NCBI GenBank assembly: GCA_964532185.1
Contig: CAZHGO010000001.1
Location: forward strand, 2,897 to 66,896
Length of the DNA stretch: 64,000 nt
Source of the DNA: an uncultured Candidatus Saccharibacteria bacterium
Lineage (GTDB): Bacteria; Patescibacteriota; Saccharimonadia; Saccharimonadales; Saccharimonadaceae
Direction: 5' to 3'
Shown: positions 21,548-27,282 of the stretch, one piece after another
Position numbering within the stretch: position 1 is the stretch's first letter
Layout: each line of letters starts with the position of its first letter
The notes under the pieces: generated by a model
Told to the model about the DNA's origin: nothing
What the model saw: the letters and a program-made list of their open reading frames with translations, nothing else
The model's database searches: none
Translations under genes and position numbers: made by a program

Positions 21548-22699
21548 GTGATAAAGATAGAAAAGTTTATTCCGGGTGGTTTTGCGCTTGGGGCCGCCGC
21601 AAGCGGCAAAAAGATGTTTTTTTGGAATGCCCTCCCTGGTGAAATTGTTACAGAATATGAAATTACCAAAAACAAATCTTCTTATGCCGAAGCTATCGCA
21701 ACCTTTATCAAAAACCCGTCACCTTACCGTGTAAAACCCAAAGATGAATGCTTTCTCTCTACTTCCCCTTGGCAAATTTTAGACTATGATTACGAATTAA
21801 AACAAAAATCCTTGCTCGTTCAAGAAATTTTTAGAGAACATAATATCAAAATTAATGCTCCAGTAGTTGTCACTGACGGCAAAGACTACGAGTATCGCAA
21901 TAAGATGGAATATTCGCTTTATTACGATATTGAAAAAGCCAAAATTTTCCCTGCTTTTCACGCTCGCGGTTCCCATCGCAAAATTCCTATTACAAAATCA
22001 TCTCTAGAGCGCCCTGAGATTTTTAAAAAAGCTAAGGAGATTATTGACGATTTAAACGCCCGTGGCGAAGAGGCTCGCAAATACCAAACTTTACTTCTTC
22101 GCTGCAATCAAAACGGCGAAGTTTCCGGCGGGCTCTACGAAAATCACCAACCCCATCCAGTTTTTGATAATCTCAAAGATATTATTTTGGGTCAAGAATA
22201 TTCCTATTCTCCCAACGGCTTTTTTCAAATCAATCTTCCGGTCTACGAACTGGCTTTAAAAGAAATCAAAAAACATGTCACCACAGATAATGTCTTAGAC
22301 CTTTACGCCGGTGTAGGCACTATCGGCTTGTCCGTCGCTCGTGACAAAAATTTGACCCTAGTAGAAGTCGACAAATCTGCCTACAAAGAATTAGTGAGTA
22401 ATGCCAATAACGCCAAAACCATTCTAGATAAATCTGAAAATGTATTAAATTATATTCAAAATAATCAGACAGTTATTTTGGATCCACCAAGAGCTGGCTG
22501 TGACAAAAAATTAATAGACACACTATTAGAAATTGCTCCCCAAAAAATCATTTATCTCTCTTGCAATCCTGCCACTCAGGCCCGCGACGCTAAGTATTTA
22601 TTGGAAAAATATCAAATAGAGCTAGTCAAAACCTTTAACTTCTTCCCTCACACTCCTCATATTGAAAACTTAATAGTTTTGGAGCGAAAAAATGGATAA
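21548..22699 (+). CDS. RlmD/TrmA-family RNA m5U methyltransferase with TRAM-like N-terminus
   Basis: YRNKMEY, FFQIN, LDLYAGVGTIG, DPPRAG, YLSCNPATQARD and FFPHTPHIE. Confidence 0.9.
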   Translation: MIKIEKFIPGGFALGAAASGKKMFFWNALPGEIVTEYEITKNKSSYAEAIATFIKNPSPYRVKPKDECFLSTSPWQILDYDYELKQKSLLVQEIFREHNIKINAPVVVTDGKDYEYRNKMEYSLYYDIEKAKIFPAFHARGSHRKIPITKSSLERPEIFKKAKEIIDDLNARGEEARKYQTLLLRCNQNGEVSGGLYENHQPHPVFDNLKDIILGQEYSYSPNGFFQINLPVYELALKEIKKHVTTDNVLDLYAGVGTIGLSVARDKNLTLVEVDKSAYKELVSNANNAKTILDKSENVLNYIQNNQTVILDPPRAGCDKKLIDTLLEIAPQKIIYLSCNPATQARDAKYLLEKYQIELVKTFNFFPHTPHIENLIVLERKNG

Positions 22700-23363
22700 C
22701 TTGCCCAAAAAACGCACCCTCTGGTTTGCCATCATTAATGCATTTTTAATTCTCACTACCATTATTGTTACATACATTACTTTATGTTTTGGCACGGTGG
22801 CCGGACAGGTAGATACCGGCACTAGCTATGGTTGGGAATATATTATCACCTTTACGGTCCAAAGCAACCTTTTGCTAGGTTTAATTGCCTTAATTAATTT
22901 AATTTTTAGTATCAGAAACCTCAAATATAACAAACCTATCCCACGAGCGGTTTTTAACTGGTATTTGGTAGCTTCTTCTGCTGCCATGCTCACCGCTCTT
23001 GTAGTGATATTTTTCCTAGCGCCCTTACGGACCTTTTCTGGCCGCAATTATTTTGACATGCTGCTTGGTCCCATGTTTTTCTTCCACTTCTTTAATCCAT
23101 TTCTCTCCGCCGCCGCGTTTATTTATCTTACGCCTAAGATAAAATTTGCTCGTCCAGATTGCTTCCTAGCGCTCATTCCTCCAATCGTTTACGCCGGCCC
23201 ATATATTTTAAATGTGGTAATTCTCAAAAACTGGCCAGACTTTTATCATTTTACTTTTGGTGGCCACAACTGGGCAATTTTGCCGGTATTCATTGTTATT
23301 TCCGCCATTACTTTTTCGATTGCTTCGCTTCTTGCTTATCTTCATAATCGCCGCCACCACTAG
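22692..23363 (+). CDS. Pr6Pr-like integral membrane protein
   Basis: About six TMs; TFTVQSNL, HFFNP and YHF motifs. Confidence 0.7.
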   Translation: MDNLPKKRTLWFAIINAFLILTTIIVTYITLCFGTVAGQVDTGTSYGWEYIITFTVQSNLLLGLIALINLIFSIRNLKYNKPIPRAVFNWYLVASSAAMLTALVVIFFLAPLRTFSGRNYFDMLLGPMFFFHFFNPFLSAAAFIYLTPKIKFARPDCFLALIPPIVYAGPYILNVVILKNWPDFYHFTFGGHNWAILPVFIVISAITFSIASLLAYLHNRRHH

Positions 23364-23374
23364 TATAAAAATCT

Positions 23375-23402
23375 TTGCAAATCTTTTTGGTTGTGCTATT
23401 AT
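23375..23402 (+). promoter_or_regulatory. Sigma70-type promoter for the FISUMP-1 leader
   Basis: TTGCAA (23375-80), 16-nt spacer with TG at 23394-95, TATTAT (23397-402); predicted TSS ~23408-23410. Confidence 0.6.
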
Positions 23403-23407
23403 AAAAA

Positions 23408-23612
23408 TAAGGAATGACAAACCCCAACGCACTTTTTAACTAGAACTTTGGCTAAATATAAAATTAAACGTAAAAATCGGCACCAGTAGGTCCAATTGCG
23501 TTTAATCTTGTACGAGGTCAAATGCGTTGGGGTTTGTCAGCCTACGGGTGCCGATTTTTAATTATATGACCCTTAAACAAATCGGCACCCGTAGAATTCC
23601 TTAAGAAGGGAA
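23408..23612 (+). ncRNA. Putative structured cis-regulatory 5' leader
   Basis: Perfect complements 23415-31/23523-39 (17 bp), 23471-84/23547-60 (14 bp), 23542-57/23579-94 (16 bp) and 23408-15/23596-603 (8 bp); further stem 23463-73/23496-506; SD hairpin 23597-612. Confidence 0.6.
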
Positions 23613-23616
23613 ATAC

Positions 23617-25410
23617 ATGGTCATACAAATCAAGAATTATATCAACAAATTCAAGCTTATCCGTATAACAGGTATTGCTACTAGTGTAGCTTTCCTCTTA
23701 TTAGTATTCCTTTCAGTATTCCCAATCATCGGCTATCAAGAGCAAGCCGAAGCCACACCAATAACTAGCACTTCTACTATTACGATTACTTCTGCTTCTA
23801 GTATAGCTAGTGTAGATATTGCTCCAATAGCAAGTACTGGCACTTTTGCTAGTAGTGATAGTAACTCATCAGTAGCTTTTGGAGTAAGTACGGATAATCT
23901 CACTGGTTATCAGCTAAGTATTATAGGCAATGATGCTACTGGAGAACTTACTAATACAAGCCATGGTGATACTATAGCTTCTATCTCCAGTCCAGTAGAT
24001 GCTACTACCTTTGCTACAGGAGATACAGAGACTTATGTTAACAAATGGGGTATATTACCTAGCAAATTGAATTCAACTGCTAATACAGATTTTCTAGCAG
24101 CTCCTACTACAAATACCAATATCATTATAGACATTACTTCTAGTCCTAATACTATCGCTAATAACTATACTATAGGCCTAGGAGCTAGAGTAGACTATAC
24201 CAAGCCAGTAGGAACTTATACTAATACTTATGTATTGCAAGCGGTAGGAAGACCAGTTATGTATACAGTTAACTATTTAGACGATAGTCCAGATACTACT
24301 ACAGTATCTTCTACTCTCCCTGCTCCAGAAGCTGGTCCTAATGCTATAGCTAAACTAGCTCTTTCTACTACTATTCCTACTAGAGCTACTTACAAGTTTA
24401 ATAAATGGTGTGATGGTACTGTTACTCATTCTACTGCTGGTGATACTTGTTCTGGTACTACTTATAGTTCTGGAGCAGACTTTATTCCTACCATTAATGG
24501 CACTAATAACCTTTATGCTATGTGGAGTCCAGTAACCTTTGCTGAAGCTTATCAAGAAGCTGGGAAAAGCCAAACTAGTGGTTATTATAAAATGCAAGAT
24601 ATGACTACTAACATCTGTGCGGCAGTTACCCAAGACCAAAAGATTCAACTGATGGATGCTCGCCAAGAAACTAGTACAGTTACTTATAGAACTTATTGGA
24701 TAGCTAAACTCAGAGATGATAAGTGTTGGATGATACAAAATTTGAGGCTGGGAGCTAGCCTTGCTGCTAGCAGTGGGAGTATGACGCTTACTACTAGTAA
24801 TTCTAATATTACTAATAATTTCGAACTTACCAATAAACAGTCTCACCCAGTTCATTTTCCTAGCAAAAATCTTGGCAAAGTAGATCCCGCTGTGTCAGAT
24901 AGTATTTTTGTATGGGATGGACCAGCTTTTTACTGTGCCCCATCAGACGGCAATAACTACGTCGGCTGCTATTATAATTGGTACACCGCAACTGCAGGTA
25001 TAGGTAAGGGAGGATATGGACCAAACGGTGCAACTACGCCAACCACAGTTGAAGGCAATATCTCGGTTGACATTTGTCCTAAAGGATGGATGATGCCTAG
25101 CGATGGTGATAATAGCGATTTCCAAGCACTGTCTAATCAATATACGCCGCTCCAAATGCTAGTAACAAACCCCACTATTACATATGATAATGACGGAACA
25201 TATTTGCCAGGTTTTCTTCTCGGCGGATATTATACAGGTACGGCAGACGATGGTATGGGTGTTTCTAATTCAGGATGGTATTGGTCTCGTACTAATTATT
25301 CCATGGGGTATGCCTACCGGTTTATTATAACTACAACTAAAGTTAGTTATAATACTAAATACAATAAAGATACTGGCAACTCCATTCGCTGCCTCGCCTA
25401 TAGCTCCTAA
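23617..25410 (+). CDS. Secreted surface protein: signal peptide, WxL/pilin-like module, InlB-like repeat, FISUMP-like domain (FISUMP-1)
   Basis: AEA cleavage site; GARVDYTKPVGTYTNTYVL; YKFNKW...NLYAMW; DDKCWMIQNL, YYNWYTATAG, ICPKGWMMP, GWYWS and SIRCL. Confidence 0.8.
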   Translation: MVIQIKNYINKFKLIRITGIATSVAFLLLVFLSVFPIIGYQEQAEATPITSTSTITITSASSIASVDIAPIASTGTFASSDSNSSVAFGVSTDNLTGYQLSIIGNDATGELTNTSHGDTIASISSPVDATTFATGDTETYVNKWGILPSKLNSTANTDFLAAPTTNTNIIIDITSSPNTIANNYTIGLGARVDYTKPVGTYTNTYVLQAVGRPVMYTVNYLDDSPDTTTVSSTLPAPEAGPNAIAKLALSTTIPTRATYKFNKWCDGTVTHSTAGDTCSGTTYSSGADFIPTINGTNNLYAMWSPVTFAEAYQEAGKSQTSGYYKMQDMTTNICAAVTQDQKIQLMDARQETSTVTYRTYWIAKLRDDKCWMIQNLRLGASLAASSGSMTLTTSNSNITNNFELTNKQSHPVHFPSKNLGKVDPAVSDSIFVWDGPAFYCAPSDGNNYVGCYYNWYTATAGIGKGGYGPNGATTPTTVEGNISVDICPKGWMMPSDGDNSDFQALSNQYTPLQMLVTNPTITYDNDGTYLPGFLLGGYYTGTADDGMGVSNSGWYWSRTNYSMGYAYRFIITTTKVSYNTKYNKDTGNSIRCLAYSS

Positions 25411-25427
25411 AACAACAAAAAACCAAT

Positions 25428-27167
25428 TTATTCCGGCAACAAATAATCCAGATAATCCTTGAGCATCCTTGTCCCAGATATTATCGGCAAAAAGCCAGCA
25501 AGTTGTTTTTGGATTAACCCCGCCAAAACATCTCTATCTTGCCAGGCTCTTCCGGCTTCGTCCATCCGCCGATAAAGCTCCAAAACTTCTTCATCTTCCC
25601 CCATTCCTCGTACCGAAAGATAATCAGAAATAGAACCATCCGCTACGCCACCATCATGCGTAGAAATTAACAAATTTAAGTTACCTATATCCTTTTCCCA
25701 GGATGTGCCACAAGCTTCCAGGCCCACAATCGGCATATTAATTGCTATGTTAGAGCCCACAGACAGTGCATAGGCTAATCTTTCATCATAATCTACGATA
25801 TAATGCACGTGCTCTCTCAAAAAATCATCCGAATTAACTAGCTCCAAAACGTCCCTCAAAATTCCCGCCATCTTCACGTCCCCTGTATGCACTCTGCCCG
25901 CAATAATATAATGTGCATTATATTTTTGCAAAATCTCTCTTAATCTTGCAGGGTCTTTAAAAGGTAGTTGTGGCCTTTTGTAATTCACGAAACGCCGCTT
26001 AAAGTCAAACAAAATCTCTCCATTTTCAAATTTGAGGTACCGCCCATTTTGATCCGGACGCCTAGAAAGCTCATCATTTAATATCCCTCTACCAATTTCT
26101 TTAAATCCCAAAATCAAATCGCAAGAAAGCGCCTTTAATTTTTCCGCAAAATCAGGGGTAGGGATGTCAAATTCATCCAGGATCTTTTCGTCATGATAAA
26201 AGTTCATAATATCTGGTAGAATCCATTTTTGTAGGTCAATTCCATTAGTGATTGCCTTGAATTTTACCCTCTCACCGGCAATGTCGCGATAATTTGCCAC
26301 CCTAGCGTGTAATTTAGAAACCCCCGAGCGTAGCTCCGCGATTTCTATCGCTACCGAAGATAGCTTAACTTTTCCATTCACAAATTTATCTGAAAGCCAC
26401 TTTTTAACTGCTCGAGATTTAAGATTAGGAAAGACAAAATTTTCAAATTGGCCATAATAAAATTCCGCTTCCGCCGCCTGTATTAAAGTATGATTGGTAT
26501 AAAGTGTATGTTTGCGGGTGTAGACCATCGCTTCATAAAAATCCATTCCGTTAGAGACTAGCTCATCCAAACGCACCAAGGCGGCAAAAAACGTCGCCAC
26601 TTCATTTAGCTGCATGATCGCTGGCCTCAAACCCAACAATTTTAATGCTTGATATCCACCAAAACCTAGCGACACTTCTTGGTAAAGTCTATGATCAGAG
26701 CCAGAAAGCCCCGAATATAGCTCGCCAAAATTAGGCTCTGTAATTGCTAGAATCCGAGTATTTTCAAAAGCCTTTTCTATTACCTCCAGATTACAATCAT
26801 TGCCGCAACACCTCACCGATACGTCGCCAACTTTATTAAAACCATAGTTACGATAATCTACGGGGATATGCTCGTCTACAATCTGCCCGTCTTGCCATTT
26901 TTGATGGGTCTCAAACGGGTAAAAAGGTGTTATCAAAACAAACGGGACCTTCACTTGTTCAGCTATTCGCCTAGCATCAGCCGCCAGAACCCCCAAACCG
27001 CCGCCACCACGAATCCCATTTTCTTGATCGTATAATTCTAGAGTCCAATAGGTATAAGGACGCTCTGGCGACAACTTGCGATTAAACACACGCCTATCAA
27101 TAGCGGTTTCAAAAACTTCGGTATCTTCAATATTTTCTAATGGATGATAAAAAAAATCTTGTTCCAT
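25428..27167 (-). CDS. Alpha-glucan (glycogen/maltodextrin) phosphorylase-like, GT35, short form
   Basis: GGGGLGVLAAD, DHRLYQEVSLGFGG, YTNHT, ITNGID, RRFVNYKR and LEACGTSWEK. Likely start ATG 27167. Confidence 0.85.
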   Translation of the reverse strand: MEQDFFYHPLENIEDTEVFETAIDRRVFNRKLSPERPYTYWTLELYDQENGIRGGGGLGVLAADARRIAEQVKVPFVLITPFYPFETHQKWQDGQIVDEHIPVDYRNYGFNKVGDVSVRCCGNDCNLEVIEKAFENTRILAITEPNFGELYSGLSGSDHRLYQEVSLGFGGYQALKLLGLRPAIMQLNEVATFFAALVRLDELVSNGMDFYEAMVYTRKHTLYTNHTLIQAAEAEFYYGQFENFVFPNLKSRAVKKWLSDKFVNGKVKLSSVAIEIAELRSGVSKLHARVANYRDIAGERVKFKAITNGIDLQKWILPDIMNFYHDEKILDEFDIPTPDFAEKLKALSCDLILGFKEIGRGILNDELSRRPDQNGRYLKFENGEILFDFKRRFVNYKRPQLPFKDPARLREILQKYNAHYIIAGRVHTGDVKMAGILRDVLELVNSDDFLREHVHYIVDYDERLAYALSVGSNIAINMPIVGLEACGTSWEKDIGNLNLLISTHDGGVADGSISDYLSVRGMGEDEEVLELYRRMDEAGRAWQDRDVLAGLIQKQLAGFLPIISGTRMLKDYLDYLLPE

Positions 27168-27282
27168 GCTTATGCTTATTATAACATCAATAATCAAAAA
27201 TTGAAACGGAATTCATTTTCGTTTAATTTTCTTACTGGTTTCTTTTTCTGGGCTTTTCTTCCCAAAGAAAAGCCCAAATACT

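Follow-up and report, generated by a model that had tools for sequence, protein, structure and literature searches.

What kind of element lies between the promoter and the start codon of a gene for a secreted FISUMP protein in an uncultured Candidatus Saccharibacteria bacterium, and what does it do? The window analysed here is a stretch of 64,000 nt from that genome, in which a first-pass annotation, made from the sequence alone, had marked a leader of about 210 nt with mutually exclusive helices and had taken it for an ON/OFF translational switch. All the pairings that the annotation had listed (P1, P2, A:B, B:C and a clamp between the 5′ and 3′ ends) are present, at the coordinates collected in Table 1. 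A further pairing, absent from its list, joins 23557-71 in the B:C loop to 23619-33 in the start codon region. A sigma-70-type promoter directly upstream places the predicted transcription start at ~23409-10, so that the first 1-2 bases of the annotated 5′ element probably fall outside the transcript. We conclude that the leader belongs to a hitherto undescribed family of structured 5′ leader RNAs of gut Saccharibacteria (Nanosyncoccus and relatives), which measure ~150 nt from the transcription start to a U-tract.

Table 1. Features of the leader and its surroundings in the window
Feature	Position	Strand	Partner, evidence and remarks
Promoter (predicted)	23375..23402	+	−35 TTGCAA 23375-80, 16-nt spacer, extended −10 TGcTATTAT 23394-23402
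P1 5′ arm, rod base	23415..23434	+	partner 23520-39; 20 nt, 95% complementary
Middle helix 5′ arm	23447..23453	+	partner 23516-22; MFE structure
P2 5′ arm	23457..23473	+	partner 23496-512; complementarity and MFE structure
Element A, rod tip	23471..23490	+	partner B 23541-60; 20 nt, 95%, one mismatch
P2 3′ arm	23496..23512	+	complementarity, MFE structure and covariation
Middle helix 3′ arm	23516..23522	+	MFE structure
P1 3′ arm	23520..23539	+	complementarity, MFE structure and covariation
Element B, hub strand	23541..23560	+	complementary to A and C; U-tract 23555-59 at its end
Element D, UAUAUGACC	23563..23571	+	in the B:C hairpin loop; complementary to the start-codon region; accessory, one subfamily
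Element C, A-like copy	23579..23594	+	perfect 16-bp hairpin with B 23542-57 (16/16)
ATTCCTTA, then SD AAGAAGGGA	23596..23612	+	partner of ATTCCTTA is the 5′ tail or the SD; subfamily-specific
5′/3′ clamp, TAAGGAAT/ATTCCTTA	23408-15 / 23596-603	+	8/8 complementary
D′, GGUCAUACA	23619-27	+	overlaps the start codon of the downstream gene
Downstream gene, 597-aa secreted FISUMP (Fib_succ_major) domain protein	23617..25410	+	

Within the window the folded stretch extends from 23409 to 23603. The minimum free energy of 23400-23625 is −85 kcal/mol, as compared with −44.9 ± 4.3 kcal/mol for dinucleotide shuffles of the same segment (z = −9.3; 0 of 200 shuffles folded as well), and the equilibrium structure consists of the rod together with the B:C hairpin. 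Element A also makes a small apical hairpin, which carries a GNRA cap in most copies. The opposite strand of the leader folds equally well; folding energy alone therefore cannot separate RNA from DNA or pick a strand, and it was the comparative data that settled both questions. As to the surroundings, the plus strand directly upstream of the promoter (22692-23363) encodes a 223-aa protein with no family match, and the minus-strand flank (25428-27197) encodes an alpha-glucan phosphorylase-like protein (PF00343; TIGR02094 below its cut-off).

The first-pass annotation had recognized no known riboswitch consensus, and the Rfam search agrees: cmscan against Rfam 15, run on positions 22800-24200 at E ≤ 10 and on 20 further copies at E ≤ 1, gave only faint matches to miRNA hairpins, which we treat as noise and whose scores fall well short of gathering. 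No account of the leader was found in the literature searched on Saccharibacteria riboswitches, leader RNAs, RNA motifs and Fib_succ_major. A BLAST-type DNA search of 200 genomes of the bacterial family recovered leader copies in the own genome only, which indicates that the leaders are held together by structure rather than sequence, and that covariance models are needed to follow them. One such model, R1, was built from six paralogues of the own genome (0.84 Mb, 111 contigs) aligned by MAFFT; it found nine copies in that genome and matches in 22 of 60 congeners. Another, R2, was built from alignment A3, which held 96 matches after 60 more loci had been added. R2 finds 14 leader copies in the own genome; at E ≤ 1e-5 it matched 25 of 40 congeners, the highest copy numbers per genome being 32, 25 and 16. 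Among 150 genomes of the family it matched 32, and of the 94 other genera it matched 24, usually with one or two copies each, a spread that the single-genome model R1 had underestimated (2 of 150 genomes in other genera). In ~146 genomes from 79 other families of the phylum R2 gave no match.

An exact-pattern scan of one genome per species, covering 185,579 species, matched at least 106 loci, and among the loci listed all but two belong to MAGs of Candidatus Saccharibacteria or Candidatus Nanosyncoccus, from the gut of sheep, goat, cattle and mouse. Of the two listed matches outside Saccharibacteria, L168 in an Oscillospiraceae MAG is probably a contaminant introduced by binning, and L191 in Candidimonas nitroreducens probably a match by chance. 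In the own genome, an exact A-type motif, AAAAAUGGCAUCAUGAGG, lies at ~1458 of contig 88, near the end of this 1.5-kb contig, and is probably a fifteenth, truncated leader copy. The annotation had named FISUMP and WxL genes as the place to look for homologous leaders; before FISUMP genes such leaders do occur, as a multi-copy family that the covariance model recovers. The family is new within the class of cis-regulatory structured leaders with alternative helices, and is unusual in both architecture and copy number.

The rod is kept as a structure and varies freely as a sequence. Across 95 copies in A3, P1 is 98.2% paired, with compensatory double changes in 15 of 15 pairs, and P2 is 93.9% paired, with covariation in 12 of 12, as compared with ~40% pairing in controls with the partner shifted by 1-3 columns; A3 having been fitted to the model, these counts for P1 and P2 lean towards structure. 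The stem sequences are essentially unrelated between copies, the internal loops share the freedom of the rod in sequence and length, and the middle helix is likewise variable in both respects in other copies. Among the six own-genome paralogues, 24 of 39 predicted pairs show compensatory double changes.

The A:B pairing is kept in all 95 copies. For this helix a structure-blind MAFFT alignment, A4, running from A to B, was used, and a fixed set of 19 column pairs was counted. In A4, 88.4% of cells are paired, as compared with 42-52% when the partner is slid by 1-3 columns, and double changes occur in 15 of the 19 pairs (145 cells); 0 of 500 shuffles reach the observed values, a statistic that overstates significance, the copies being mutually related. 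The variants include GGCACC/GGUGCC, GACACC/GGUGUC, GGUGCC/GGCACC, CAGCACC/GGUGCUG and GGGAUC/GGUCCC, and cognate A:B duplexes average −27.5 kcal/mol, as against −22.2 kcal/mol for non-cognate ones. Compensatory changes, which the annotation had looked to homologues to supply, are thus present in P1, P2 and A:B alike, and the support from covariation is as strong as for accepted RNA families. Furthermore, G.U cells outnumber A.C cells by 312 to 49 in the rod and by 167 to 59 in A:B, an excess which shows that pairing is selected in the gene-sense RNA. A structured leader on that strand, just after the promoter as annotated, is therefore genuine.

The genomic context is similarly constant. An extended −10 element (TGnTAtAAT) directly precedes the leader in 95 of 95 distinct copies, and in most of them the last three bases of the −10 box are the first positions of the model, so that P1 begins at or within a few nucleotides of +1. 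Downstream of B, at a distance of 19-229 nt, about 80 of the 96 copies have an SD-bearing ORF on the same strand, and most of the remaining copies are cut off by contig ends. In many copies the U-tract lies 19-60 nt from the start codon, which leaves no room for a second promoter; the gene must therefore be read from the leader promoter. The proteins encoded downstream begin with a basic and then a hydrophobic, signal-peptide-like segment, and a Fib_succ_major/FISUMP domain is present in the window gene and in most of the long downstream examples. In the other genera the leaders precede a wider range of genes, frequently ones for small membrane proteins; the core (promoter, rod, A:B and U-tract) is kept there and C is largely missing, while C is present in most Nanosyncoccus copies. 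Taken together with the covariation, we regard it as very likely that the element is a functional, gene-sense, cis-acting leader RNA.

In many copies the leader points towards a contig end 30-300 nt away, because paralogues have in common a repeat that extends from B over the first ~70 codons. Assemblies break 25-40 nt after B in many copies (own-genome contigs 75, 62, 16, 30 and 31, and many congener contigs), which indicates that the multi-copy repeat runs from the B–C spacer through C into the 5′ coding sequence, and that copy numbers from MAGs are lower bounds. In the window, the 280 nt from the 3′ half of B to codon 69 (23545-23824, with C and the SD inside) are 100% identical to the paralogue on contig 11 (~1580-1860 of locus L002), whereas the rods of these two are only 47-82% identical. 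On sequence grounds the identical block is suggestive of gene conversion, or of recombination, with one end of the exchanged tract lying within B. In their many copies per genome, extensive self-complementarity and nearby assembly breaks the leaders are like REP or MITE repeats; they differ in their fixed promoter-to-gene context, their strand-specific G.U pairs and their unrelated stems with compensatory changes. A repeat of that kind would be expected as nearly identical copies, bounded by terminal inverted repeats, at unrelated sites without regard to genes; the leaders do not fit this pattern. The annotation had allowed that the element might prove to be a dispersed MITE or REP copy unrelated to the downstream genes, a possibility at odds with the extended −10 before all 95 copies and the ORF after some 80 of 96.

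The mutually exclusive helices that had been annotated are centred on B, whose alternative partners are A and C. The B:C hairpin reaches −15 kcal/mol or better in 73 of 88 copies and −20 kcal/mol or better in 54, with a mean of −22.6 kcal/mol as against −13.2 kcal/mol when the downstream sequence is shuffled, and C tracks changes in B, with several Watson–Crick types per column. The conserved bases of the leader are almost wholly those of A, B and C. Such conservation, combined with a freely varying rod, argues against a small-molecule aptamer.

B begins 0-3 nt after P1 and ends in the U-tract, and the core of A:B ends 1 nt before this tract of 4-6 U residues in 94 of 95 copies. T fills the columns of this tract in 92-94 of 94 copies, but A occupies those of the complementary A-tract in only 59-80 (63-85%), and the neighbouring pairs flip freely among AU, UA, GC and CG. 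The U residues are thus kept as such and not merely as complements, a hallmark of intrinsic terminators. Two features expected of an attenuator are present: a predicted promoter directly upstream of the gene (95 of 95 copies, with the ORF 19-229 nt after B), and a stable, GC-rich helix followed by a U-tract. That helix is A:B, which measures 14-22 bp, its strands lying 50-70 nt apart, atypically long-range for a terminator. In 93 of 95 copies A:B (−28.8 kcal/mol) is favoured over the P2+P3 hairpin that sequesters A (−18.1 kcal/mol); with the inner rod as a whole (−29.8 kcal/mol) it is about level. On these calculated energies, a fold of P1 plus A:B would be poised against the full rod. Once C has been made, the rod plus B:C is the clear energy minimum.

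In 72 of 95 copies a second, local hairpin (GCACC/GGUGC, 5 bp, ~−7.5 kcal/mol) stops 2 nt short of the U-tract. It was considered as a universal terminator and rejected, being absent from the window's subfamily and having a single informative pair that is only partly correlated. Elsewhere in the own genome, stand-alone hairpins with the A:B stem sequence (AAAAAUCGGCACC...GGUGCCGAUUUUU) and a U-tract occur at 2790-2832 of contig 13, within an intergenic cluster of four terminator-like hairpins, and at ~23845 of contig 5. They may be ordinary terminators related in origin to the A:B helix of the leader. The occurrence of these hairpins with their U-tracts is consistent with A:B being terminator-like.

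The universal A:B helix and the invariant U-tract point to termination or stability rather than to SD masking. The U-tract, the energetics, the behaviour of the SD across copies (see below) and the lack of room for a second promoter together favour control of elongation or stability over SD masking. On balance we lean towards the combined statement that the leaders form a new cis-regulatory family in which B is the pairing hub and which is probably a transcription attenuator. That the leader works by termination is a claim that we make more tentatively, as having a little less than an even chance. In such an attenuator, the rod would fold first and hold A in its tip. The emerging B may then invade the tip, forming A:B beside the U-tract and bringing about intrinsic termination; if A were instead kept locked in the rod tip, polymerase would read through. 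The small local GCACC/GGUGC hairpin could offer a second terminator-like option in most copies. After read-through, C would capture B, and the mature mRNA would carry the rod and the B:C hairpin. Candidate inputs to the decision are a protein bound to the rod tip, folding kinetics, and cross-talk among the many leaders.

Two points weigh against this scheme. First, we know of no established precedent for a terminator whose strands lie 50-70 nt apart and whose loop is paired elsewhere, as in a pseudoknot, and it is hard to see how a full-length A:B could be accommodated sterically together with the full rod. Second, C lies downstream of the U-tract and cannot influence a termination decision; its strong conservation therefore needs a separate role.

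Alternatively, the leader could be an mRNA stabilizer or processing element, in which the rod, by pairing the extreme 5′ end, guards the abundant mRNAs of surface proteins from 5′-end-dependent RNases and A:B and B:C hide a U-rich, RNase-sensitive stretch, no on/off decision being made. The rod alone would also fit a 5′ stabilizer: P1 starts at the predicted transcription start or a few nucleotides from it, pairing in the rod is kept while its sequence is free, the downstream genes encode secreted surface proteins, the SD is not sequestered, and the equilibrium fold is that of the rod plus B:C. Stabilizing hairpins are known from the 5′ UTRs of highly expressed surface-protein mRNAs, such as Escherichia coli ompA, Bacillus subtilis aprE and Lactobacillus S-layer slpA, and the leader is analogous to these in placing a long, stable hairpin at or next to +1, upstream of a gene for a secreted or surface protein. 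Those, however, are simple hairpins that lack a covarying three-partner A/B/C system and an invariant U-tract. Stabilization leaves unexplained why A, B and C are conserved in sequence and the rod is not, why B has two alternative partners that both covary, and why the U residues are invariant rather than merely paired. We consider it unlikely.

The translational switch of the first-pass annotation, in which a ligand, an antisense RNA or a ribosome would shift the leader between pairings that leave the SD or start codon accessible and pairings that cover it, draws on features that the window copy does possess: the TTCCTT anti-SD, the 5′/3′ clamp, and D:D′, which pairs onto the start codon. The clamp and anti-SD, as annotated, are real in this copy; they are confined to it and to its near-identical contig-11 paralogue, which is identical over that stretch, and are absent from the contig-19 copy. 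The clamp was for this reason discarded as a feature of the family. D is present in 11 of 78 copies, of which 10 also carry D′ near the start, and one compensatory exchange is seen (AUGACC:GGUCAU to GUGACC:GGUCAC); the pairing is nevertheless limited to ~13% of copies. Across 78 copies the SD is neither consistently paired nor free (mean probability of being unpaired 0.52), and its distance from B is highly variable. SD sequestration was for these reasons rejected as a general mechanism, and the annotated masking switch does not carry over to the family. D:D′ and the clamp with its anti-SD may instead be a translational add-on of the window's subfamily, outside the family core. The RNA motif (A)AGGUCAUACAA is found repeatedly at start codons or close to them, in the window at 23619-23627 and at many related loci, among them L028, L037, L111 and L093. 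At some loci it is coding, with N-termini of the form M..VIQ, and at others it falls in the 5′ UTR; it may serve as a conserved signal motif of the N-terminus, as an element of the RNA, or in both ways.

A ligand-binding switch would, moreover, be expected to have a conserved unpaired core as aptamers do, and the leaders have none. Nor is there a conserved uORF or leader peptide: ATG-initiated ORFs occur in 36-39 of 95 copies (less than 40%), they encode unrelated peptides, and many of their ATGs fall inside the −10 box. This bears on the likeness to IncI plasmids that the annotation had drawn. In the control of repZ and repA in IncI and IncB plasmids, a loop-to-RBS pseudoknot acts together with a leader peptide, repY, and an antisense Inc RNA. 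The leader is analogous in that an apical hairpin loop would pair with a distal downstream segment of the same leader; unlike the plasmid systems, it has no conserved leader peptide, its pairing target is not at the RBS, it has an invariant U-tract, and no antisense promoter or RNA was identified there. The repY/repZ comparison thus holds as an analogy. As an account of the family, translational switching seems to us quite improbable.

It could also be argued that each element is an independent gene for a trans-acting sRNA, comprising a promoter, a rod RNA of ~150 nt and a terminator, with read-through into the gene being incidental. A promoter, a structured body and a terminator-like end are all present, and the A, B and C motifs are common to many loci of one genome, which makes cross-pairing possible: A or B might pair with other leaders, coordinating or mutually excluding expression of surface proteins. 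Against this, there is mostly too little space before the downstream genes for them to have their own promoter, the orientation and position of the element relative to the gene are constant, a full element without a downstream gene has not been seen as a stand-alone copy, and motif subfamilies differ within one genome. A search of the own genome for A- or B-like 14- to 15-mers with up to two mismatches outside the leaders, as possible partners in trans, yielded matches in genes that are attributable to chance, two small hairpins resembling terminators and one copy that is probably truncated, and nothing else. We regard an sRNA gene as very doubtful. A DNA-level element, whether a MITE- or REP-like repeat, a cruciform, or a recombination or inversion site that switches surface-gene cassettes, can be set aside as highly improbable, since the multiple copies, the equal folding of both strands, the many copies adjoining contig ends and the mosaic of 100% identity between paralogues from B into the coding sequence are outweighed by G.U far exceeding A.C, which places selection for pairing on one strand only, by rods that are unrelated between copies yet paired, unlike the products of recent transposition, by the fixed position after a promoter and before a gene, and by the occurrence of no inverted variant among 95 copies.

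Returning to the preferred reading of the leader as a transcription attenuator, its closest relatives in design would be terminator/antiterminator leaders, that is, attenuators and riboswitch expression platforms such as the T-box, PyrR and ZTP-type pseudoknot switches. Like these, it is a promoter-proximal 5′ leader in which one strand has mutually exclusive partners, it has a GC-rich helix ending at a U-tract, and it employs long-range pairing of a loop with a strand, as in the pseudoknot type of riboswitch. Unlike these, it has no Rfam match and no aptamer-like core, only its pairing elements being conserved; its candidate terminator is formed from the loop of a rod tip and a strand 50-70 nt away, with C downstream of the U-tract; and it occurs in up to 32 copies per genome, before surface-protein rather than metabolic genes. 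As regards the T-box in particular, GUGGCACCGC is taken by us to resemble a T-box sequence in part; RF00230 matched neither the window leader nor the 20 further copies, and the genes downstream of the leader are not related to amino acids.

Saccharibacteria are ultra-small epibionts that live attached to host bacteria, and their surface proteins form the interface with the host; to our knowledge, almost nothing has been established about how the genes for these proteins are regulated. The finding that one RNA design precedes up to roughly 4% of the genes in a 0.8-Mb genome provides a testable handle on the regulation of a large family of surface proteins, and supplies an alignment and a model for a new RNA family that is absent from Rfam. 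It may also reveal a new way to build a terminator. In its fullest form, which we put forward as a speculation with the odds against it, the leader would represent a new class of attenuator, in which a pseudoknot terminator is made from the loop of a rod tip and a distal strand, and C serves as a downstream decoy that resets the fold. Placed before up to 32 surface-protein genes of a 0.8-Mb epibiont, such leaders may be read by one common factor, or through RNA–RNA cross-talk between them, so as to coordinate or diversify which surface proteins are made.
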